Positions 1-35,250 of a stretch of DNA of 64,000 nucleotides are shown here, piece after piece. The stretch is from contig JAKAZA010000001.1 in the NCBI GenBank assembly GCA_021816155.1, forward strand, positions 6,018 through 70,017, read 5' to 3'. Every line of letters begins with the position of its first letter. Within the stretch, counting starts at the first letter, position 1. The notes beneath the pieces were generated by a model, which did not search any database, had not been told where the DNA came from, and saw only the letters and a list, made by a program, of their open reading frames with translations. Position numbers and translations under genes: made by a program. This DNA comes from Pseudomonadota bacterium (GTDB taxonomy: Bacteria > Pseudomonadota > Alphaproteobacteria > Caulobacterales > Caulobacteraceae).

Positions 1-1782
1 CCGGTTCGGGTCCTTGAGTCCCGCACGAGCGCGGCGAACCGCGTCGGAGACGGCGACGAGCGCCTCCTCCTGGCCGACGACCCGTCGTCTGAGGTCGTCC
101 TCCATGCGGAGCAGCTTCTCGCGCTCGCCTTCGAGCATCTTCTCGACCGGCACGCCGGTCCAGCGGCTGACTACGGCGGCGATCTGCTCGGCGTCGACGA
201 CCTCGGGCGTCAGCGTCGCGGTGTCGCCGGATTCGTCCTCCGCCAGCAGCTTCTCCAGCTTCGGAATCTCGGCGTACGCGATCTCTGAGGCGCGCTGCAG
301 GTCTCCGCGGCGCTGGGCGGCGGCGAGTTCGGCGCGCAGCCGGTCGAGCGCCTCGCGGGCCTGGGCGGCCTGGCCGACCTTGTCCTTCTCGGCGCGCCAG
401 CGCGCGGTCATCGCGGCGGACTGACCCTCCAGCTCGTCGAGCTCGTCCTCCAGCTTTTCGAGCCGCGTCTTCGACGCCGCGTCGTGCTCCTTGGTCAGGG
501 CCTCGCGCTCGATCTTCAGCTGCACGATCCGCCGGTCGATCTCGTCCAGCTCCTCCGGCTTGGAGTCGACCGCCATGCGCACGCGGCTGGCCGCCTCGTC
601 GACGAGGTCGATCGCCTTGTCCGGCAGGAAGCGGTCGGTGATGTAGCGGTTCGAGAGCGTGGCGGCCGCGACGATCGCGCTGTCGGAGATGCGCACCCCG
701 TGGTGCACCTCGTACTTCTCCTTCAGGCCCCGCAGAATCGAGACCGTGTCCTCGACCGTCGGCTCGCCGACGAAGACCGGCTGGAACCGCCGCGCAAGCG
801 CCGCATCCTTTTCGACGTGCTTGCGATACTCGTCGAGCGTGGTCGCGCCGACGCAGTGAAGTTCTCCCCGGGCCAGCGCCGGCTTCAGCAGGTTCGAGGC
901 GTCCATCGCGCCGTCGGTCTTCCCGGCCCCGACGAGGGTGTGCATCTCGTCGATGAACAGGATGATGGAACCCTCGGCCGCGGTGACTTCGCCGAGCACG
1001 CTCTTCAGCCGCTCCTCGAATTCGCCGCGATACTTCGCGCCGGCGATCAGGGCGCCCATGTCGAGCGCCATCAGCTTCTTGTCTTTGAGCGACTCCGGCA
1101 CGTCCCCGTTGACGATGCGCAGCGCGAGGCCCTCGACGATGGCGGTCTTCCCGACGCCGGGCTCGCCGATCAGCACGGGGTTGTTCTTGGTGCGCCGGGC
1201 CAGCACCTGGATCGTGCGCCGGATCTCTTCGTCGCGGCCGATGACCGGATCGAGCTTCTGGTCCTTGGCGGCCTGCGTCAGGTCGCGCGCATAGCGCTTC
1301 AGCGCGTCATAGCCTTCCTCGGCCGAGGCCGTATCGGCCGTGCGGCCTTTGCGCAGGGCGGCCGCAGCCTCCTCGAGACCGGCCGCGGCGGCGCCGGCGC
1401 TCTTCAGCGCGGCGGCGGCGTCTCCGCCCTCCTTGGCGATCGCGATCAGGAGGCGCTCGGTCGTCACGAACGCGTCGCCCGCGGCCTTGGCGTCGGCCTC
1501 GGCCTTTGCGAACACGCTTGCCGTCGCCGGCTTCATGTAGAGCTGGCCCGAGCCGCCCTCCACCTTGGGCGTCTTGGAAAGCAGCTGCTCGACGGCGGCG
1601 TCGACGGCGTCTGGCCGTCCGCCCGCGCTCTGGATCAGGGCCGGCGCGAGGCCGTCCTTCTCCTCGAGCAGCACCTTCAGAAGGTGCTCTGGACCGAGCT
1701 GCTGGTGGCGGCGCGCAAGCGCCAGGGATTGCGCCGACTGGATTGCCTGTTTGGCGCGGTCGGAATAGGCGTCGATGTTCAT
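1..1782 (-). CDS. clpB: ATP-dependent chaperone/disaggregase ClpB, N-terminal 594 codons (3' end lies outside the window)
   Basis: The minus-strand frame is open from nt 1 up to ATG (CAT at 1780-1782). It is missing from the ORF track only because the stop is off-window. My translation starts [44 protein letters not shown], contains Walker [16 protein letters not shown], and ends ...[12 protein letters not shown] at the window edge. The + strand ORF 484..1821 is its antisense shadow. Confidence 0.95.
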
Positions 1783-1882
1783 GGATCCCCTCGTCAGGCG
1801 GATTGGACGGGATCGCCTTGATCAAGCGCAACCCCGCCTGCCCGATGTAGTGTGGCGCCCCAGCCACACAAGACCGTGCGGG

Positions 1883-2224
1883 CTAGAGACCCAGGGCCCG
1901 CGCGAGGGCGGCGATGTTGACCGGCTTGGAGATGACCGGGGCGCTGCGCAGGTCGGGACGCACGCCTTCTACGCCATAGCCGGTCACGAAGGCGAACGGC
2001 ACGCCGCGCGCGGCGAGGCGGTCGGCCACGGCGAACGAGCGGGCGTCGCCGCCGAGGTTGACGTCGAGCAGCGCGAAATCGACGCCGTCGGCGTTGGCGA
2101 GCCGCATCGCTTCGGCGACCGTCGCGGCCGCGCCGACCACCTGGCAGCCCAGGTCCGCGAGCAGATCCTCCAGCAGCATCGCCACCATCGACTCGTCCTC
2201 GACGATGAGCACGCCACGCGTCAT
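1883..2224 (-). CDS. Single-domain (receiver-only) response regulator
   Basis: 113-aa CheY-like receiver (LIVEDE..., FALLDVNLGG, VISKP) with no output domain. Its ATG overlaps the stop of the upstream kinase (ATGA at 2221-2224). Confidence 0.9.
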   Translation of the reverse strand: MTRGVLIVEDESMVAMLLEDLLADLGCQVVGAAATVAEAMRLANADGVDFALLDVNLGGDARSFAVADRLAARGVPFAFVTGYGVEGVRPDLRSAPVISKPVNIAALARALGL

Positions 2225-3324
2225 GTCGAGGCGCCGCCGGCGCCTGCCAAGGGCGCTGTGATCGTGCAGACCAGACCTTCGGGCGCGAACTCGAGTTGCG
2301 CCCCGCCTTCCAGATCGCGGGCGAGGCCCTCGATCATGCGCGAGCCGAAGCCGCGCCGGGTCGGCGGTTTCACCTGCGGTCCGCCATGCTCGCGCCAGAC
2401 GATGCGCAGGTGCTCGCCGCGCCTGGCCGCCTCGATGGAGACGCGCCCCTCCGCCGTCGACAGGGCGCCGTACTTGGCCGCGTTCACGCAGAGTTCGTGA
2501 AGGGCCATCGACAGGGCGAGCGCCGCTTTGGGGGGCAGTCGCTCGTCGGGGCGCGTCACGCTGAACCGTTCGGACAGGCCGCTGTTCTCGATCGCCTCAA
2601 GGAGCAGGTCCGAGAGGTCGGCGCCTTCCCAGTTCTGGCGGGTCAGAATGTCGTGCGCGCGGGCAAGCGCCACGAGGCGCCCGTCCAGGGCCTTGCGCGC
2701 GCTCTCGAGGTCCGGAGCGTTGCGCAGCGTCTGCCCGGCCACGGCCTGGACGGCGGCCAGGCTGTTCTTGACCCGATGGTTCAGCTCGCCCAGCAACAGC
2801 CGCTGCAGTTCCTCGGCGCGGACGCGTTCGGAGATGTCGCGCATGACGCCGGTGAAGAAGCGCCGGTCGTCCGCCCACCATTCCGCCACCGACAACTCGA
2901 GCGGGAAAGTCGAGCCGTCCTTGCGGAGGCCGGAGACCTGGCGGCCGATGCCGATGATGCGCCGCTCGCCGGTCTCGAGGTAGCGCCTGAGATAGCTGCC
3001 GTGCGCGCCATGGTGCGGCTCCGGCATCAGCAGGTTCACGTTCCGCCCGATCGCCTCGGCGGCCGTGTAGCCGAACAGCCGTTCCGCGGCCGGGTTGAAC
3101 GAGATCACGCGGCCTTGCTCGTCGATCACCAGGATCGCGTCGACGGCCGTATCGACGATGGCGCGATAGCGCGCCTCGGCGCCAGCGAATGGTCCCGCTT
3201 CGCCCGCCCGCGCGCTGCTGAGCGCCTCTTCCCGGTCCGCCAACCCGCTTCCCCCTGCGGAATCGCCTTCGGTAATCTTAACCGTACACGTAGTATCACT
3301 TACGCGCGACAATCCGTCACTCAC
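2221..3324 (-). CDS. PAS (FixL-like heme-binding type) sensor histidine kinase of the HWE / HisKA_2 family
   Basis: 367 aa. PAS block: AERLFGYTAAEAIGRNVNLLMPEPHHGAHGSYLRRYLETGERRIIGIGRQVSGLRKDGSTFPLELSV...FFTGVMRDISE. H-box ELNHRVKNSLAAVQA, plus W-x-E (IVWREHGGP) and HELCVNAAKYGA, typical of HWE kinases. Confidence 0.9.
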   Translation of the reverse strand: MSDGLSRVSDTTCTVKITEGDSAGGSGLADREEALSSARAGEAGPFAGAEARYRAIVDTAVDAILVIDEQGRVISFNPAAERLFGYTAAEAIGRNVNLLMPEPHHGAHGSYLRRYLETGERRIIGIGRQVSGLRKDGSTFPLELSVAEWWADDRRFFTGVMRDISERVRAEELQRLLLGELNHRVKNSLAAVQAVAGQTLRNAPDLESARKALDGRLVALARAHDILTRQNWEGADLSDLLLEAIENSGLSERFSVTRPDERLPPKAALALSMALHELCVNAAKYGALSTAEGRVSIEAARRGEHLRIVWREHGGPQVKPPTRRGFGSRMIEGLARDLEGGAQLEFAPEGLVCTITAPLAGAGGAST

Positions 3325-3363
3325 TCGCTCACGGCGAGAGGCTGCGACGACGCGTCGCCGTCG

Positions 3364-3393
3364 GGTGAACGCCGGACAACAGACTGGTTCACC
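3364..3393. repeat. Inverted repeat GGTGAAC-N16-GTTCACC in the divergent intergenic region
   Basis: Read directly: GGTGAAC at 3364-3370 and GTTCACC at 3387-3393. On the minus strand it reads GGTGAAC-N15-CGTT, a near match to the EcfG-type GGAAC-N16/17-CGTT promoter. Function unknown. Confidence 0.5.
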
Positions 3394-3504
3394 ACGCCTT
3401 CAGCGGCCGGGGCGCAGCATCGATCCGCTCGCTTGCAGGGGAGAGCGAACCGGGGAGTCCGGTCCGCCGAACGAATGGAATGAACCCGCGCGGCGCGGCG
3501 GCGA

Positions 3505-4467
3505 TTGAACGAAACGCCATGTGGAAAGGAGCCGGCCATGGCGAGGAGGAGACCGAGAGGCGTTCTGGGGCTGGGCCTCGCCTGCCTCGAATGCGCGGCC
3601 GTCGGGCGGACCGAACACGTGCCGACCGCCAAGGACTATCCCGAGACGGTGGTCCGACGCATCAGCTTCAGCGCGGGCGGCGGCCTTGGCTGGCGAATCT
3701 CCGCGCTCGTCACGCCGCGCGACAAGCCGGCGCCGCTCAAGATCGTGGTCATCCCCGGCGCGCCGTCATGGGCCGAATACTGGGCGCCAGTGCTCGCCGC
3801 CCTGCCGCAGGATCGCGAAATGGTGGTGGTCGACCGCCCCGGCTTCGCGGCCAGCGAGCCGGCCATGTGCGTTCCTGACATCCGCCTGCAGGCGCTTGCG
3901 CTCTCGCCAGTGCTGAAGGCGGCGCCTGGTCAGCGTGTGCTGTTGGTCGGGCAGTCCTATGGCGCGGCGATCGCGACCGTGATGGCCGCCAGGCACGCCG
4001 GGTCGCTGACCGGGGTCGTGCTGCTGTCCAGCTTTCTCGGCGAGCCAGGCCCCACCGCGCGATTCCTGGTCAACCTCGGCATGCGCGTGTTGGCCCTCAT
4101 CCCCCGCGATCTGCGCAACGCAATCGTCGAGGTCAGCGGGCAGCAAACCCAACTGGTCCACATGCGCCAGGCGCTGCGTCGGCTCAACGCGCCGGTCACC
4201 GTGATCCACGGCGACGCCGACGACTTCGCTCCGATCGAACTGGCCGAGCGGCTGGTGGCGGAAACGCGCTCGAGGAAGCCGATGCGCTTCATCCGCGTGC
4301 CGGGCGCCAACCACTTCTTGAACGACGGCCCTGTCGAGCTGATGCTCGGCGTGCTCGAGCGGTGCGTTCCGCCAGCGCCGGCGCAGAGCTTCAAGCTTCC
4401 GCCGCTTCCGCGGCTCGACTGGCTGCGACCGAAGCCGTCGTCGGAGCAACAGCCGGCCGGCGCCTGA
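3505..4467 (+). CDS. Alpha/beta-fold hydrolase, probably exported
   Basis: Nucleophile elbow LLVGQSYGAA (G-x-S-x-G), VIHGDADDFAP, and GANHF near the C-terminus. Hydrophobic N-terminal segment. The start could instead be ATG 3538 (MARRRPRGVLGLGLACLE). Confidence 0.8.
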   Translation: MNETPCGKEPAMARRRPRGVLGLGLACLECAAVGRTEHVPTAKDYPETVVRRISFSAGGGLGWRISALVTPRDKPAPLKIVVIPGAPSWAEYWAPVLAALPQDREMVVVDRPGFAASEPAMCVPDIRLQALALSPVLKAAPGQRVLLVGQSYGAAIATVMAARHAGSLTGVVLLSSFLGEPGPTARFLVNLGMRVLALIPRDLRNAIVEVSGQQTQLVHMRQALRRLNAPVTVIHGDADDFAPIELAERLVAETRSRKPMRFIRVPGANHFLNDGPVELMLGVLERCVPPAPAQSFKLPPLPRLDWLRPKPSSEQQPAGA

Positions 4468-5412
4468 TCAGCCCTCGTCGACTTCCACGGGCGCCGCCTC
4501 GCCGGCGTCGAAGTTACGGGGCGGACGGCGACGGCGCGGACGGCGAACCTCGCCGCCACCTTCCTCCGCCCCCGGACGCGGCTCCGGGCTGCGTGTCTGG
4601 AGAAACGCCGGTGCGTGGCTCACCGCGCCGTCCTCGCCTCGCAGCATGCCGCCGCTCTCACCGGGATCGTAGGCGGGCGGCTCCGTGGCGGTGAGCGGCG
4701 TCGCCTGTGGTTCGATCACCCCCAGCGGGTCGCGCGGCTGGCCTTGATCGCGGTCGCCGCGGTCCTGCCGGTAGTCTCGTTCCGGCCTGCGGTCGCCCTG
4801 GAAGCGCCCCTGACGCTCGTCACGAGGCCGTTCGTCACGAGGCCGTTCGTCACGGGGCCGTTCGTCACGCTGAAACCGCCCCTGACGGTCGCCGGAATGG
4901 CGCTCGTCGCGCGGCCTGAACTCGCCGCCCTGTTGTCGATCCTCGCGGGAGCGGAAGTCGCGTTCCTCGCGCGGCCGGTAGTCACCCTGCTGTCGCTCGT
5001 CGCGCGGCTGCCATTGCCGTTCCTCGCGCCGACCCTCCAACGCGCCGTCGGGCTCGGCCTCTGCTTCGTCCGCGCCCTGGCCCTCGTCCTCGAAGTCGAT
5101 GTCGTAGCCCGATGCGAATTGGTCGCGGCCGATTATCTCAGAGATCGGGCGCTGTGGCTGCATCGCGCGCAGTACGCGGAAGTAGTGCTCGGCGTGCTGC
5201 TGGTAGTTCTCGGCGAGCACGCGGTCGCCCGATGAGCCGGCGTCGCGCGCCAGCTGCTGGTATTTCTCATAGATGTGCTGCGCGGCGCCGCGCACCTTCA
5301 CGCCCTCCGGGCCGTTCGAATCGAACGCCCGGTTCGCGTTGTGCTGAGGCTTGCCGCCCCCGCCCCCGCGACCGCGGTTGCGCTGACGCTTCATCCCCTT
5401 GAAATCTCTCAT
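4468..5412 (-). CDS. DUF4167 domain-containing protein with a long Arg/Asp/Glu-rich tail
   Basis: The N-terminus MRDFKGMKRQRNRGRGGGGGKPQHNANRAFDSNGPEGVKVRGAAQHIYEKYQQLARDA... is typical of the alphaproteobacterial DUF4167 family. It lies immediately downstream of prmC. The C-terminal two thirds are low-complexity R/D/E/Q. Confidence 0.85.
   Translation of the reverse strand: MRDFKGMKRQRNRGRGGGGGKPQHNANRAFDSNGPEGVKVRGAAQHIYEKYQQLARDAGSSGDRVLAENYQQHAEHYFRVLRAMQPQRPISEIIGRDQFASGYDIDFEDEGQGADEAEAEPDGALEGRREERQWQPRDERQQGDYRPREERDFRSREDRQQGGEFRPRDERHSGDRQGRFQRDERPRDERPRDERPRDERQGRFQGDRRPERDYRQDRGDRDQGQPRDPLGVIEPQATPLTATEPPAYDPGESGGMLRGEDGAVSHAPAFLQTRSPEPRPGAEEGGGEVRRPRRRRPPRNFDAGEAAPVEVDEG
4816..4870. 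repeat. 15-bp tandem repeat, about 3.7 copies, in frame inside the DUF4167 gene
   Basis: CTCGTCACGAGGCCG / TTCGTCACGAGGCCG / TTCGTCACGGGGCCG / TTCGTCACGC. It encodes ERPRD-ERPRD-ERPRD-ER on the minus strand. Confidence 0.9.
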
Positions 5413-5668
5413 GGTTGGCTGACCTGTTGCGGATCGCGCGGCCGCCCGGCGCGCGTCCGCGACGGACCTACGGTTTCCCTCAGAGCTGCGGGCGATCCTG
5501 CCCGGTTTAGTGTCCGAAAACGCTTAAGGTTCCTTAGTCCCCAGCGAGGCCTTCGCGCGCTTTTCAGCGCCTGCCGGAGCGCCTCGCGCGCCTGCGTTTG
5601 TCGCCGGCGCCTCGACCTCAACCCCGACGGTTCTAGGAGGAGACCTAAGCGATGTAGCGATTCGACCG

Positions 5669-6472
5669 TTAATTTCCAAGGGGTTTCTTGAGACCTGCGA
5701 CCACGCGCTCGCGATCCGCGAGGTCGCGATGGGCGCCGAGCTGGTCGGCCCCCGCGGCGGCGAACAGCGCCATGACGTCCGCGCACTGGCCGACGCCGAT
5801 TTCGACCGCGAAGAACCCCCCTGGCTTGAGCACGCGCAGGATTTCCGGGGCCAGGACGCGATAGGCGGCGAGACCGTCCGGCCCGCCGTCCAGTGCGAGG
5901 CGCGGTTCGAAGTCCCGCACCTCCGGCTCGAGCGTTTCGATGTCGGCGCTCGGGATATAGGGTGGGTTGGCGACGACGAGGTCGAACGAGTTGTCGCCCA
6001 GGCCCTTCGTCCAATCAGCGCGCAGCAGCGTGACCCGGCTCTCGAGGCCGAGCCGTGCGGCGTTGTCCCGCGCCACGGCCAGCGCGTCCTCGGATGCGTC
6101 GACGCCGAGTCCCTGGGCGCGCGGCCGCTCGGCGAGGATGGCGAGGATGAGCGCCCCTGAGCCGACGCCCAGGTCCAGGGCGCTGAACGCCCGCTCCGGC
6201 GCGAAGCGCGCCAGGACCACGTCGAGGATCGTCTCGGTGTCGGGCCGTGGCGTCAGCACCGACGGGCCGACGTCGAGCATCAGCGTCCAGAAGGCCTTCC
6301 GACCCAGGATGTGACTGATCGGCTCACGTCGCTCGCGGCGGGCGACAAGCGCCTCGAGCCGTTCGGCGGCGTCGTCCGCGAGCGCGCGGTGCGGATCGGC
6401 GAGGATATCCGCCCGGGTGACGGGCGCAGCCGATTCGAGCAGCAGCCGCGCGTCAATCGTCGGACTTTCCAC
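5669..6472 (-). CDS. prmC: Peptide chain release factor N5-glutamine methyltransferase; the true 5' end is probably further upstream (to about 6530)
   Basis: VVANPPYIP (NPPY), SAM motif ALDLGVGSGAL, ISHILGRKAFW. The track start is GTG 6472, but the in-frame upstream codons encode a PrmC-like N-terminal helix (see findings). Confidence 0.85.
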   Translation of the reverse strand: MESPTIDARLLLESAAPVTRADILADPHRALADDAAERLEALVARRERREPISHILGRKAFWTLMLDVGPSVLTPRPDTETILDVVLARFAPERAFSALDLGVGSGALILAILAERPRAQGLGVDASEDALAVARDNAARLGLESRVTLLRADWTKGLGDNSFDLVVANPPYIPSADIETLEPEVRDFEPRLALDGGPDGLAAYRVLAPEILRVLKPGGFFAVEIGVGQCADVMALFAAAGADQLGAHRDLADRERVVAGLKKPLGN

Positions 6473-12995: not shown

Positions 12996-14380
12996 CGACG
13001 GCGCGGGCGGAGCTGCATCCGGATGGCTTGCCTTCGCCCCGCCGCTGGTGGGCGGCGCTGGCGGTCTGGCTGAGCATATCGATGACGGTGCTCGACTCGT
13101 CGATCGCCAACGTCGCCCTGCCCACGATCGCCCGTCAGTTCGGCGCTGCGCCGTCGGAGTCGATCTGGATCGTGAACGCCTACCAGCTGGCGATCGTGAC
13201 CACCCTGCTGCCGCTGGCCTCGCTCGGCGAGATCGTCGGCTACCGGCTCGTCTACCGCGCCGGCATCGTGCTCTTCACCTGCGCGTCGCTCGTCTGCGCC
13301 TTCTCGCACTCGATGGGCATGCTGACTCTCGCCCGCACGGTGCAAGGGCTGGGCGCCGGCGGCGTGATGAGCGTCAACGGCGCGCTCGTGCGGCACATCT
13401 ACCCGCACCGTCAGCTCGGCCAGGGCATCGGGCTCAACGCGATGGTCGTGTCGGCCGCCTCTGCGATCGGGCCCACCATAGCCGCCGGCATCCTGGCGAT
13501 CGGGCCATGGCAGTGGCTGTTCGGCATCAACATCCCGATCGGGCTCGCCTCGGTGGCCGTCGGCTGGCTGAGCCTGCCGGAGAACGAGCTGTCGCCGCGC
13601 CGCTTCGACTGGCTGTCGGCGGCCCTCAACGCCCTCATGTTCGGCCTCGTCATCAACGGCGTCGACGTGCTGAGCCGCACGCAGGCGAGGCTGGCCGGCG
13701 CCCTGGAGACGCTGGGCGGGATCGTCGTCGGCGCGCTTCTGGTGCTGCGCGAGCTTGGCCGCCCGCGCCCGCTGGTGCCGCTGGACCTGCTGCGCAATCC
13801 GATGTTCGCGCTCTCGGTCGCGACCTCGACCGCCTCGTTCTCCGCACAGATGCTGGCCTTCGTTGCGCTTCCGTTCCGCTTCGAGAACGTGCTGCACTTC
13901 AGCCAGGTCGAGACCGGCCTGCTGCTCACGCCGTGGCCCGCGGCGGTGGGGCTGATGGCCCCTGTCGCGGGCTGGCTCGCCGACCGAATGTCGACGCCGA
14001 TCCTCTGCGCGCTCGGGCTGGCCGTTTTCTGCGGCGGGCTGGCCGCCCTGGCGCTGACGCCGGCCGCGCCTTCGGCGTTCGACATCGGCTGGCGCATGGC
14101 GATGTGCGGAACCGGCTTCGGCCTCTTCCAGTCGCCTAACAACCGCATGATGCTGACGTCCGCGCCGCGGGAGCGGGCGGGCGCCGCCGGCGGCATGCTG
14201 GGGACGGCCAGGCTGACCGGCCAGACCTGCGGCGCGGTGCTGATCGCCATCCTTCTCCACTTCTTCGGCGACGCCGGCGAAGAAGTGGGCCTCTGGATCG
14301 CCGCGGTCTTCGCGGCCGCCGCCGCGGCCGTCAGCCTGTCGCGGACGGCCGTACGCGTCGCAGAGGCCGCGCCCGTCTAG
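12992..14380 (+). CDS. MFS transporter, DHA2 (EmrB/QacA-like, 14-TMS) type
   Basis: MTTARAEL...WWAALAVWLSISMTVLDSSIANVALPTIARQF is typical of DHA2 exporters, with many TM segments. ATG 12992 overlaps the upstream stop (ATGA). Confidence 0.85.
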   Translation: MTTARAELHPDGLPSPRRWWAALAVWLSISMTVLDSSIANVALPTIARQFGAAPSESIWIVNAYQLAIVTTLLPLASLGEIVGYRLVYRAGIVLFTCASLVCAFSHSMGMLTLARTVQGLGAGGVMSVNGALVRHIYPHRQLGQGIGLNAMVVSAASAIGPTIAAGILAIGPWQWLFGINIPIGLASVAVGWLSLPENELSPRRFDWLSAALNALMFGLVINGVDVLSRTQARLAGALETLGGIVVGALLVLRELGRPRPLVPLDLLRNPMFALSVATSTASFSAQMLAFVALPFRFENVLHFSQVETGLLLTPWPAAVGLMAPVAGWLADRMSTPILCALGLAVFCGGLAALALTPAAPSAFDIGWRMAMCGTGFGLFQSPNNRMMLTSAPRERAGAAGGMLGTARLTGQTCGAVLIAILLHFFGDAGEEVGLWIAAVFAAAAAAVSLSRTAVRVAEAAPV

Positions 14381-14423
14381 CCGGCTCGCCCGAACGGCCG
14401 GCCTGAGGCACACTGGCGGCGCC

Positions 14424-15101
14424 ATGAAGCTGCTGGTTGTCGAAGACGACAGGGAGGCGGGCGCCTACGTCAAGCGGGCGCTCGCGGAGGCCGGCCACAC
14501 CGTCGACCACGCCGCCGGGGGGCGCGAGGGGCTGATGCTCGCCGCGGGCGAGCCCTACGACGTGATCGTGCTCGACCGCATGCTGCCCGAGATGGACGGT
14601 CTGGCGATCCTGCGCACCATCCGCGCCTCCGGCGTGAAGACGCCCGTGCTGCTGCTGACCGCGCTCGGCGGCATCGACGACCGGGTCGAAGGACTCGAGG
14701 CCGGCGGCGACGACTACCTAGTCAAGCCGTTCGCCATCGCCGAACTGATGGCGCGGCTCAACGCGCTGGCGCGTCGCCCGCCGCCGCAGGAGGCGCCGAC
14801 CACGCTGCAGGTGGCCGACCTGCGGCTGGACCGGCTGACTCGCCAGGTGACCCGCGGCGGCGCGCGCATCGACCTGCAGCCGCGCGAATTCCAGCTGCTC
14901 GAATACCTGATGCGCCATGCGGGGCGGGTGGTCACGCGGACGATGCTGCTGGAAGGCGTGTGGGAGTTCCACTTCGACCCCAAGACCAACATTGTCGAGA
15001 CGCACATGAGCCGGCTCCGGGCGAAGATCGACCGCGGCCGCAAGCCGGAGCTGATCCACACGGTGCGCGGCGCCGGCTACAGCCTGCGCGAGGGCCCCTG
15101 A
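14424..15101 (+). CDS. OmpR/PhoB-family DNA-binding response regulator
   Basis: Receiver (LLVVEDD, VIVLDRMLP, DDYLVKPF) plus winged-helix output (LQPREFQLLEYLMRH...VWEFHFDPKTNIVETHMSRLRAKID...TVRGAGY). Confidence 0.9.
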   Translation: MKLLVVEDDREAGAYVKRALAEAGHTVDHAAGGREGLMLAAGEPYDVIVLDRMLPEMDGLAILRTIRASGVKTPVLLLTALGGIDDRVEGLEAGGDDYLVKPFAIAELMARLNALARRPPPQEAPTTLQVADLRLDRLTRQVTRGGARIDLQPREFQLLEYLMRHAGRVVTRTMLLEGVWEFHFDPKTNIVETHMSRLRAKIDRGRKPELIHTVRGAGYSLREGP

Positions 15102-31311: not shown

Positions 31312-31641
31312 CGAAGTTCCTTTCGCCAGACCAAAGTGCGACGCCAGCATTGCGCGTCGTGGGCTCGCCGCATTGAGTTGCGTCAACGGTGGCGCTTAGG
31401 GCCGGCCATTTCGCAAAGGATGGTCTCTTTCGCGCCGGTATGTCGGGGCTTCGAGACAGGGACTTGACGGCTGCAGAGGACCTCGTGACTAGGCTGCATT
31501 GAGAAGAGATTGTCTTTGGCGGCCGATTGACTTGGCGCAAGGACCGGAGCGGCGCCCGACTCTATGCAGCAACCTGCTGGGCGCGCTGAGCCGGATTCCG
31601 AAGGCTCGCTTGCCTTTCGTCTGCAATCGAGGAGCAGGACA

Positions 31642-33266: not shown

Positions 33267-34757
33267 TTAAGCGACCGTAGCCTTGGCCGAAGCGCGTTCC
33301 AGCGCCGAAGCGACTGCGGCGGCGATCTGGGCGACATTGTAAGGCTTGCGCACCACCGGCGCGTCGAAGCCCTCGGGCGCCGGGGCGGCGTCGCCGTAGC
33401 CGGTCGCGAAGATGAACGGCTTGCCCCTGGCGCTCAGCGCCGCGGCCACCGGCGTAACCGACGCGCCGTTGAGATTGGCGTCCAGCACAGCCACGTCGAA
33501 CGACGTGTCGGCCAGCTGCAGCGCCTCGTCGACGTCGGCCGCCGTGCCCACCACCCGCGCCCCTGCCTCGGTGAGGCCGGCCTCGAGCTCCAGCGCCAAG
33601 AGCACCGCGTCCTCGACTATCAATATGCGCCGGCCCCGCACCGCCTCGGACGCGAACGCGCCGGCCGAGGCGCCTTCCTGCGGCTCCGGCTTGGTCTCCG
33701 GCGGCCGCTCCGCGGGGGCCGACGCTTCCGTCGCCGCCATGGCCGTCGCGTCCGCGGTGATCCGGGCGCGGGCGCCGTCGGGGCGGAACTCCAGCAGCGC
33801 CTCGCCGCCCAGCTCGCGTCCCGTGACTCGCTCCAGCAGCGTCACGCCGAATCCGCGATGTGTCGGCTGGCCGACCGATGGTCCGCCGCGCTCGGTCCAG
33901 GTCAGTTCGAAGCCCGCGCCTGCGCGCCTTGCCCAGGTCACCTCCACGCGACCCGTCTCGACCGAAAGCGCGCCGAACTTGACCGCGTTGGTGGCCAGCT
34001 CGTGCAGCGCCAGGGCCAGCGCGTTGGTGGCGCGCGGATTGAGCAGGATCTCTGGTCCCGACCAGCGCGCCTGGCCGGGCGCGAGGCCGCCGAGCTCGGC
34101 CGCGGCGATGTTGCCGATCTCGGCGCCGCGCCAGCGTGTGGCCATCAGAAGCGCATGGGCCGAGGCCATCGCGTCGAGCCGGCCGGCGAAGGTCTTGAGA
34201 AACGCGTCGAGCGAGGTCGTGCGGCGCGCCGATTGCGCCGCGAGCGATTGCACCGAGGCCAGGAGATTCTTCACCCGGTGGTCGAGCTCGGCGACGAGGG
34301 CGTTGCGGGCCGTTTCCTCCGCCTTGCGCCGGGAGATGTCCTCGATGATCCCCACTACCCGGCCGGGGCCGCCTGCGGCGCCCTTGATCTCGCTCGCTAC
34401 GTTGCGCAGCCAGACCAGGCGCCCGTCGTCGGGCCGCGTGAAGCGGAATTCGACGTCCAGCCGTCCCGTCTCCGCCAGCTCGACCTCATCCGCACGCTTC
34501 AGCGCGGCGAGGTCGTCGGGATGGACATGCGCGGCGAGCCGCCCACCCTCGCGAGGCAGCTCGCCGGCGGGAAGGCCGGTGATGGCGGCGAGGCGTTCGC
34601 TGACGACGAACCTGTCTTCGGCTCTGTCGAGCTCGTATTCGCCGATCCGCGCCGCGCTAAGGGCGAGGCTCGCGAGCTCGCTGCCGAGGGCCGGCTGCTC
34701 GCTTGCAATGCGCGTATTACGTGCGTCGTCCACCATACTCGCCAGCTTATGCCGCAT
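33267..34757 (-). CDS. Hybrid sensor kinase: PAS + HWE/HisKA_2 kinase + C-terminal receiver
   Basis: H-box ELDHRVKNLLASVQS, HELATNAVKFGA, W-x-E (LTWTERGGP), then receiver RILIVEDAVL...VAVLDANLNG...FIFATGYG. Start trimmed to ATG 34757 (MRHKLASMVDD). Confidence 0.85.
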   Translation of the reverse strand: MRHKLASMVDDARNTRIASEQPALGSELASLALSAARIGEYELDRAEDRFVVSERLAAITGLPAGELPREGGRLAAHVHPDDLAALKRADEVELAETGRLDVEFRFTRPDDGRLVWLRNVASEIKGAAGGPGRVVGIIEDISRRKAEETARNALVAELDHRVKNLLASVQSLAAQSARRTTSLDAFLKTFAGRLDAMASAHALLMATRWRGAEIGNIAAAELGGLAPGQARWSGPEILLNPRATNALALALHELATNAVKFGALSVETGRVEVTWARRAGAGFELTWTERGGPSVGQPTHRGFGVTLLERVTGRELGGEALLEFRPDGARARITADATAMAATEASAPAERPPETKPEPQEGASAGAFASEAVRGRRILIVEDAVLLALELEAGLTEAGARVVGTAADVDEALQLADTSFDVAVLDANLNGASVTPVAAALSARGKPFIFATGYGDAAPAPEGFDAPVVRKPYNVAQIAAAVASALERASAKATVA

Positions 34758-34884
34758 TTGAGGGCATGGCGACGAGTCAAAAACCGGGCGGCGCGAATCG
34801 CGCCTTGCCGCGTTTCCGCCTATAGTGACGACAGCAAGGCCGGCGGCCGCGGATCGCCTGGCCGGCAAGTCCGGAGACGAGCGC

Positions 34885-35250
34885 ATGCCCGACGACACCA
34901 TCGCGACCGCTGAAGCCGCGGCGTCCGACGCCGCCACGTCCACGCGTCGCGTCGGCAAGACCGCCCACGCCGCCGCGGAGAAGGGCCAGGACAGCCTGAA
35001 CGAGGCGATCGAGCTGGCTGAGCGGAATATCCGCGATGCGGCGCGCCGCATCGAAAAAGCCGTGCGCGAAGCCGTCGAGCAGATTCGCGCGCACGCCGGT
35101 CCCTATCGCGAGCAGGCCAGCCAGCAGCTCGACGAGGCCTCGAAGTACCTCGTCGAGCGTGTCAAAGAGCGGCCGGTGACGGCGACCGCCGCGGGCCTCG
35201 CGGTCGGTCTTTTGCTCGGTCTCATGCTGGCCAACCGCTCCAGCAAGTGA
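34885..35250 (+). CDS. DUF883 (ElaB/YqjD/YgaM-like) membrane-anchored stress protein
   Basis: Helical Ala/Glu/Arg-rich body and the characteristic tail ERPVTATAAGLAVGLLLGLMLANR. ATG 34885 follows GGAGA. Confidence 0.8.
   Translation: MPDDTIATAEAAASDAATSTRRVGKTAHAAAEKGQDSLNEAIELAERNIRDAARRIEKAVREAVEQIRAHAGPYREQASQQLDEASKYLVERVKERPVTATAAGLAVGLLLGLMLANRSSK

Follow-up and report, generated by a model that had tools for sequence, protein, structure and literature searches.

A 64,000-nucleotide (nt) stretch of a Caulobacteraceae genome (GenBank assembly GCA_021816155.1, contig JAKAZA010000001.1, positions 6,018 to 70,017 of the forward strand; hereafter the window) contains a two-gene unit, of which one gene joins a FixL-type PAS domain to a histidine kinase of the HWE type and the other encodes a receiver-only partner. 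Judging from the residues and the predicted fold of the encoded proteins, it is probable (roughly 70% by our estimate) that the unit specifies a soluble kinase of the cytoplasm that uses heme to sense a gas, most likely O2, together with a single-domain receiver dedicated to it. The unit is a new combination of known parts and not a new principle, because neither of the halves nor the layout of the cassette is new and heme-PAS domains are familiar from HisKA, GGDEF/EAL and other outputs. A preliminary description of this DNA had stated that no heme-PAS HWE kinase was known to have been characterized; we know of none either, and a full-text literature search, which was thin on subscription journals, yielded none.

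Both open reading frames (ORFs) proposed on the minus strand are present there (Table 1), and the four-nucleotide overlap that had been described between the kinase and a receiver-only partner of 113 amino acids (aa) consists of an ATGA shared by the TGA stop of the former and the ATG start of the latter, which indicates that the two genes are translationally coupled. At all of the 12 orthologous loci examined, this window being counted among them, the start of the receiver gene either overlaps the kinase stop or directly adjoins it. The kinase ORF is 367 aa long when read from a GTG at position 3324, whereas the public gene calls (P0001) place the start at a TTG, codon 28 (nt 3243), to give a protein of 340 aa; the start codon is uncertain. 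The N-terminal ~45 residues are unconserved in relatives and are disordered in the AlphaFold2 (AF2) model of the kinase, which has a predicted local distance difference test score (pLDDT) of 82. No transmembrane segment was seen in this model, although no transmembrane predictor was applied.

The principal evidence for the sensory function comes from the PAS domain, to which Pfam assigns aa 52-164 (2.3e-20). In phmmer searches of PDB sequences, the domain aligned gap-free with the heme domains of RmFixL (1d06, E 1.5e-35) and BjFixL (1dp6, E 1.6e-33), with an identity of ~50%. EcDosP followed at about 1e-19, and LOV domains reached just 1e-6 to 1e-9. The similarity is far beyond chance, and the FixL-type assignment in the preliminary description is borne out. 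The predicted PAS structure also matched FixL heme domains in Foldseek (template-modelling (TM) score 0.76-0.85, root-mean-square deviation 2.5-2.9 A, 48-53% identity), and the liganded FixL structures 1dp6, 1dp8 and 1lsv were among these matches. Within the AF2 model, the only internal stretch of low confidence consists of the heme helix and the loop that comes after it, as might be expected of a model built without the cofactor.

The residues of the heme pocket can be compared one by one, as the gap-free alignment makes each query residue number equal to that of BjFixL minus 92. The candidate proximal ligand (H108) and the Arg of IIGIGR (R128), both of which had been singled out beforehand, fall at the heme-ligating positions when aligned with BjFixL and RmFixL, and correspond to His200 and Arg220 of BjFixL; Arg220 is the O2-contacting switch residue of that protein. 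R114 is the counterpart of Arg206; together with Arg220, this residue accounts for the arginine contacts to the heme propionates and to O2. Among 28 family members, the proximal His is kept in 25, R128 in 26 and R114 in 21. R122 stands at the position of His214 of BjFixL, where RmFixL also has Arg, and the distal hydrophobic residues are I123 (Ile215), L144 (Leu236) and V146 (Ile238; Val in RmFixL). The Ile238 position is occupied by Ile in 14 and by Val in 12 of the 28 relatives; the other pocket positions are kept in 21-28 of them. Every BjFixL pocket residue checked is thus identical in the query, conservatively replaced, or represented by the RmFixL residue. The retention of the His in 25 of the 28 relatives, together with that of the other pocket residues, implies purifying selection on the pocket, and the domain probably binds heme. 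It is not a flavin LOV sensor, since Val96 in GRNVNLLM occupies the position of the LOV adduct Cys (GRNCRFLQ in LOV domains). All of the motifs quoted earlier from the kinase ORF are present in the sequence, namely AERLFG, AIGRNVNLLMPEP, H108...RRY, IIGIGR, DGSTFP, FTGVMRD, ELNHRVKNSLAAV and W310-R-E312.

The transmitter, as had been proposed, differs from the HisKA/FixJ design. Its dimerization and phosphotransfer (DHp) domain matches Pfam HWE_HK (PF07536) over aa 180-256 at 2.9e-25 (89.2 bits against a gathering cut-off of 22.8), and the NCBIfam FixL equivalog model (NF041777) is restricted to aa 50-186, where its score of 150 bits falls short of the cut-off of 850. The preliminary description had assigned the H-box to HisKA_2; this family does match, but far more weakly (25 bits) than HWE_HK. 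The H-box reads ELNH183RVKNSLAAV, and H183 and ELNHRVKN are invariant in all 28 family members. HATPase_c_2 matches aa 261-339 of the catalytic domain, in which the N-box contains H276 (LHEL..NAAKYGA). The W-x-E signature of the HWE family is present as reported (W310-R-E312), but it is located in the G1 box and not in the ATP lid. In the 28 relatives, the Trp and the Glu of this signature are invariant and the N-box His is nearly so. By its Pfam match and by H183, H276 and W310-R-E312, the protein is a member of the HWE histidine kinase family, with predicted kinase activity. The closest solved structure to the kinase half is the kinase domain of Brucella LOV-HK (5epv; 40% identity, TM 0.80-0.83). 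The NCBIfam blue-light LOV-HK model (NF052306) covers only aa 76-358, and its score of 157 bits is below the cut-off of 450.

The two halves are joined by D163-I-S165-E-R, after which 18 residues lead to H183. This coupler is modelled as one continuous helix (AF2 residues 138-175 in P0001 numbering). The same 18-residue spacing is found at the PAS-HK junction of Brucella LOV-HK and in a PAS-PAS-HWE paralog of the same genome, on contig C79, so that the heme PAS sits in a standard register for coupling PAS and DHp domains.

Table 1. Features of the gene pair and of the adjoining intergenic region, in coordinates of the window.
Feature	Position	Strand	Basis
Sensor kinase gene, one PAS domain and HWE kinase core	2221..3324	-	ORF list, Pfam, NCBIfam, orthologs (56-79% identity), AF2
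FixL-type heme-PAS domain (putative), aa 50-172	2809..3177	-	phmmer alignment, Foldseek, pocket residues
H108 codon (CAC), candidate proximal heme ligand, BjFixL His200	3001..3003	-	alignment
R114 codon, BjFixL Arg206	2983-2985	-	alignment
R128 codon in IIGIGR, BjFixL Arg220	2941..2943	-	alignment
PAS-kinase coupler, D163-I-S165-E-R then 18 residues to H183	2776..2838	-	AF2, alignments
HWE_HK dimerization/phosphotransfer domain, aa 180-256	2557..2787	-	Pfam PF07536
Catalytic ATP-binding domain, aa 261-360	2245..2544	-	HATPase_c_2
ATGA overlap, kinase TGA / receiver ATG	2221..2224	-	sequence
Receiver-only response regulator, 113 aa	1883..2224	-	Pfam Response_reg only
Divergent intergenic region between kinase and alpha/beta-hydrolase genes, presumed to hold the promoter	3325..3504	.	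sequence

The receiver has an acidic pocket (E9-D10), a putative phospho-acceptor (D54, nt 2063-2065) and K100, and its motif P76-FAFVTGYG-84 (nt 1973-1999) is of the FATGUY type (PFAFVTGY). The FATGUY regulators SdrG (Sphingomonas melonis), MrrA (Caulobacter) and Sma0114 (Sinorhizobium meliloti) are likewise receiver-only proteins with a PFxFATG(G/Y)-type motif; their consensus has Ala where the 113-aa receiver has Val, which is a single conservative change. Its best PDB relatives are Sma0114 (2lpm, 2e-23) and SdrG (5ieb, 1.4e-21), which are 46-48% identical to it, followed by PhyR receivers. Its NCBIfam matches are PRK13435 and the PhyR receiver, and within this genome it is the third-best match to the PhyR model. 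In the Sma0113/Sma0114 system, the regulator is likewise encoded beside an HWE kinase. An HWE kinase gene followed by a gene for a FATGUY receiver is in fact a widespread cassette, which occurs with many PAS inputs in Alphaproteobacteria and Xanthomonadales.

The pair shares features with several known systems and differs from each of them. The FixL proteins of Bradyrhizobium and Sinorhizobium have the same proximal His, Arg206, Arg220, distal hydrophobic residues and predicted fold. However, FixL has a HisKA transmitter, a membrane anchor and a second PAS domain, neither of the latter being seen here, and its partner FixJ binds DNA, whereas the partner described here consists of a receiver only; with an equivalog score far below the cut-off, the kinase falls outside the FixL-FixJ system. 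The LOV-HWE/HisKA2 kinases (Brucella LOV-HK, Erythrobacter EL346/EL368 and Caulobacter LovK-LovR) are of the same kinase class and show the same pairing with a single-domain receiver. They differ in having a flavin LOV domain as the input where this protein has a heme PAS, so that it does not belong among the LOV kinases either. The arrangement nevertheless mirrors that of a LOV-HWE kinase with its single-domain regulator, as had been noted beforehand, both in the kinase half and in a receiver that is close to Sma0114, SdrG and PhyR. EcDosP (heme-PAS-GGDEF-EAL) and the soluble HisKA kinases with tandem heme-PAS domains likewise use heme-PAS as a portable input, but they have different outputs, and the PAS domain described here belongs to a separate clade.

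More than 100 near-full-length relatives of the kinase (53-79% identity) were found in Caulobacter, Phenylobacterium and other Caulobacteraceae, and the databases annotate them solely as 'PAS domain S-box protein' or 'sensor histidine kinase'; the next-best database matches are the tandem heme-PAS HisKA proteins. Named sources of orthologs include Caulobacter endophyticus, Caulobacter sp. AP07 and Caulobacter sp. LjRoot300. In an even sample of Caulobacteraceae, an ortholog with at least 63% identity occurs in 7 of 151 genomes; three of these (this genome and two others) belong to one genus and four to another. A sample of 400 other genomes from across the Alphaproteobacteria yielded no additional heme-PAS HWE fusion, the PAS-HWE matches there having other types of PAS. 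A contig scan identified at least five loci of the heme-PAS lineage (L005-L008 and L019) among the 80 matches listed, most of which are other PAS-HWE kinases. No Caulobacter vibrioides ortholog was found among the best 120 database matches, and in the one C. vibrioides-labelled locus among the matches listed (L060), the similarity is confined to the kinase half.

The relatives also vary in architecture. Heme-PAS / PAS / heme-PAS / HWE proteins occur in metagenomes (P0007, P0018 and P0084), one protein is heme-PAS / PAS / HWE (P0103), and another is PAS / heme-PAS / HWE (P0114). In Pseudoroseomonas vastitatis (L019:2915-5056), a membrane kinase comprises dCache_1, a heme-type PAS and HWE, and has no adjacent receiver. 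These alternative architectures keep the same PAS-HWE junction. In a tree of PAS domains, the HWE-linked heme PAS form one clade with a Shimodaira-Hasegawa-like approximate likelihood ratio test (SH-aLRT) support of 96, and separate clades are formed by classic FixL (SH-aLRT 99), which includes the FixL proteins of this genome, and by the tandem-heme-PAS soluble HisKA kinases (SH-aLRT 99). A supported clade of its own points to an old, maintained fusion and not to an artefact of assembly or of recent shuffling. A recent origin by shuffling of a domain out of the genome's own FixL genes was considered and is rejected on account of the same clade.

The genome itself (188 contigs, 3.6 Mb) encodes two further membrane proteins of the FixL type, the heme-PAS domains of which are 56-60% identical to the HWE-linked one. 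The first of these (contig C105, 12856-15373) is a confirmed HisKA kinase in which an ETR1_N-like membrane domain is followed by PAS, HisKA and HATPase_c domains, with a Crp/FNR-family regulator encoded next to it, and the second (contig C182, 42978-43672) is cut by the contig end. The preliminary description had asked for phyR, nepR and ecfG, the genes of the general stress response (GSR), and they are encoded elsewhere in the genome together with a phyK-like gene. The complete GSR locus lies, with an HWE cassette beyond it, on contig C79 (4549-12700). The PhyR encoded there reaches 360 bits, the cut-off being 240, and adjacent genes encode NepR (PF18557, 7e-16), a sigma factor of the extracytoplasmic function (ECF) class that resembles EcfG, and a PhyK-like kinase of the HisKA_2 type. 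The cassette, 3 kb downstream of this core, encodes the PAS-PAS-HWE kinase and a FATGUY receiver. In total, the genome encodes four single-domain receivers of the FATGUY type, with identities of about 45-54% among them; of the three other than the partner, at least two stand beside HWE kinases, an additional such pair being located on contig C7 (~14059-14995) and an orphan receiver on contig C91. These three receivers are encoded at 12341-12700 on C79, ~14059-14376 on C7 and ~12850-13212 on C91. The best match to SdrG is the receiver on C7 and not the 113-aa receiver.

A second HWE kinase is encoded in the window on the minus strand (33267-35051, 594 aa). It comprises PAS_3, HWE_HK and a C-terminal receiver with a FATGUY-like motif (PFIFATGYG), a hybrid architecture like that of Caulobacter SkaH.

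In the mechanism that we infer, the PAS domain binds heme, O2 is its ligand, the receiver accepts the phosphoryl group and, plausibly, there is a link to the GSR. In this model, the PAS domain would bind b-type heme via H108. As happens in FixL, binding of O2 would pull R128 into the pocket and displace the loop that follows the heme helix. The change would be relayed along the continuous helix formed by D-I-S-E-R and the following 18 residues to the HWE DHp domain, where it would either start or stop the autophosphorylation of H183; FixL itself is active as a kinase in its deoxy form. The phosphoryl group would then move to D54 of the translationally coupled FATGUY receiver. Having no output domain, the receiver must act through protein contacts or further phosphotransfer, and it may feed or drain the HWE/HisKA2-PhyR-NepR-EcfG network encoded elsewhere in the genome. 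This downstream action is the weakest step of the mechanism. The majority of the HWE/HisKA2 kinases of Caulobacter and Sphingomonas, whose input cues are described as unknown, have MrrA or SdrG as their phosphorylation targets, and these regulators control PhyR (PMC5964349). The heme-PAS pair may feed the GSR in an analogous manner. By this analogy with SdrG, MrrA and LovR, a role of the receiver in feeding or draining the network can be put forward tentatively, with somewhat less than an even chance of being correct. The complete scenario, in which O2 is a direct heme-sensed input of the GSR, the kinase loads or unloads the receiver according to O2 and the receiver exchanges phosphate with the PhyK-like kinase and PhyR, appears rather doubtful.

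Several observations weigh against a heme-based O2 sensor that acts on the GSR. The heme-PAS pair and phyR are on different contigs, with no linkage between them, and neither a conserved EcfG-type promoter nor a FixK/FNR box was found upstream of the kinase gene. The family is rare and patchy, as described above. The sequence is compatible with O2, CO, NO or the redox state of the heme as the signal and with either sign of regulation. At least five relatives (P0011, P0015, P0106, L008 and L092), of which L008 is among the heme-PAS lineage loci listed, have another residue in place of the proximal His and a degraded IIGIGR loop.

The protein may also be a heme-based gas sensor whose output is independent of the GSR, with the receiver serving as a phosphate sink that shapes the signaling of the kinase itself, or contacting another target. 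Such a role is equally simple as feeding the GSR, and we regard it as a genuine possibility, although not a favored one. Candidate targets include other HWE kinases such as the hybrid kinase at 33267-35051, adhesion or development circuits like those of LovK-LovR/SkaH, and control of carbon storage as in Sma0113/Sma0114. Apart from the lack of linkage to phyR and of a conserved EcfG promoter, the generic nature of the cassette, which serves varied inputs, is in keeping with this possibility, as is the fact that the genome's best SdrG-like match is the C7 receiver. The best PDB relative of the receiver, Sma0114, is a regulator associated with an HWE kinase in Sinorhizobium meliloti that presumably is not a component of the GSR. 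Furthermore, the kinases LovK, SkaH and SpdS form heteromeric complexes by which they control adhesion (PMC6530869). On the contrary, most HWE/HisKA2 kinases of the organisms studied converge on PhyR or MrrA/SdrG (PMC5964349), and the receiver, as the third-best match to the PhyR model, is more similar to PhyR receivers than are most others in the genome.

With respect to the ligand, the heme may sense CO, NO or the Fe2+/Fe3+ redox state, as proposed for sensors of the EcDosP and NtrY types. FixL-type hemes are established to bind O2, CO and NO, and liganded structures are among the Foldseek matches. Because two membrane sensors of the FixL type are already present, a third could differ from them in ligand or affinity. 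However, the equivalents of Arg220 and Arg206 and the distal Ile/Leu/Val triad, which are tied to O2 switching in FixL, are all conserved, and a ligand other than O2 seems improbable. It is less probable still that the PAS domain no longer binds heme and has become a module for dimerization or for signaling in a ligand-free state or with another ligand, its likeness to FixL being a matter of ancestry. The relatives that lack the proximal His are apparently heme-less derivatives of the sensor; they retain the kinase, and two of them (L008 and L092) also retain the receiver, which implies that heme binding is not obligatory for the scaffold. By contrast, the protein described here keeps the His, as do 25 of its 28 relatives, and the remainder of the pocket is likewise conserved. 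A heme-based gas sensor, with O2 as its most likely ligand, remains the preferred reading.

The surroundings of the pair are conserved across genera, with prmC and a DUF4167 gene upstream. Downstream, clpB follows on the same strand at 7 of the 12 orthologous loci (this window and six others); in several loci from Caulobacter, the pair is separated from clpB by between one and three further genes, and on a contig labelled C. segnis, a TetR gene and genes for methyl-accepting chemotaxis proteins are found in its place. The conservation of the neighborhood across genera suggests vertical descent with frequent loss. In this window, an alpha/beta-hydrolase gene (3505-4467, plus strand) lies between the DUF4167 gene and the kinase gene; it looks like a lineage-specific insertion, as the DUF4167 gene directly precedes the kinase gene in the Caulobacter loci. 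A functional tie between the pair and clpB, for example to adjust expression of the chaperone to oxygen, could be imagined from the recurrent same-strand clpB and from a one-mismatch TTGA-N6-TCAA box in front of it (1818-1831), but it is hardly credible, given that the receiver has no DNA-binding domain, that intervening or different genes occur at the loci just mentioned, and that prmC-DUF4167-...-clpB looks like a conserved backbone around the pair, which fits vertical inheritance better than function.

The divergent gap upstream of the kinase gene contains a perfect 7-nt inverted repeat (GGTGAAC-N16-GTTCACC, 3364-3393), which can be read with one mismatch as a near-EcfG motif (TGAAC-N15-CGTT); an exact GGAAC-N15-18-CGTT was not found upstream of the kinase, the EcfG-type promoter being defined as GGAAC-N16-17-CGTT. 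No promoter element conserved among the orthologous loci was found. Both the repeat and the near-motif are absent upstream of all 11 orthologs, so that the near-motif was treated as unsupported and an EcfG-type promoter at this position was rejected. A scan of positions 1600-3700, which is weak at 70% GC, detected no sigma-70 promoters or intrinsic terminators, and no Rfam family was found in positions 1-6000 at E<=1. Over the whole window, TTGA-N6-TCAA boxes (FixK/FNR-type) with at most one mismatch number 12 against 4.1 expected, a count that none of 100 shuffles reached. They include a perfect box, TTGAGTTGCGTCAA, at 31373-31386 and another box at 31527-31540; the box at 1818-1831 is located in the gap that runs from the receiver stop to the start of clpB. 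The same 100-nt gap (1783-1882, minus strand) also contains an inverted repeat (GTGTGGC...GCCACAC) overlapping CTTG...CTACAT, a stretch that presumably resembles an alphaproteobacterial sigma-32 promoter and is to be regarded as a candidate.

HWE/HisKA2 kinases and FATGUY receivers run the alphaproteobacterial GSR and related circuits of adhesion and development, and their cues other than blue light, which is sensed by LOV domains, are stated to be unknown (PMC5964349). The unit described here provides a candidate for a defined signal, oxygen, in a kinase class whose inputs are mostly unknown. The FixL heme domain offers a titratable ligand (O2, CO or NO) and a well-understood allosteric switch, and the system would allow the study of HWE gating, of the polarity of the signal relative to the FixL rule, and of routing through single-domain receivers. 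As a natural module swap at a fixed 18-residue junction between PAS and DHp domains, it may also be useful for the engineering of sensors. If O2 does prove to be an input of the GSR through this pair, the kinase would do for a gas what the LOV input does for light, and it would be the first of the HWE kinases for which a cue other than light is chemically defined.

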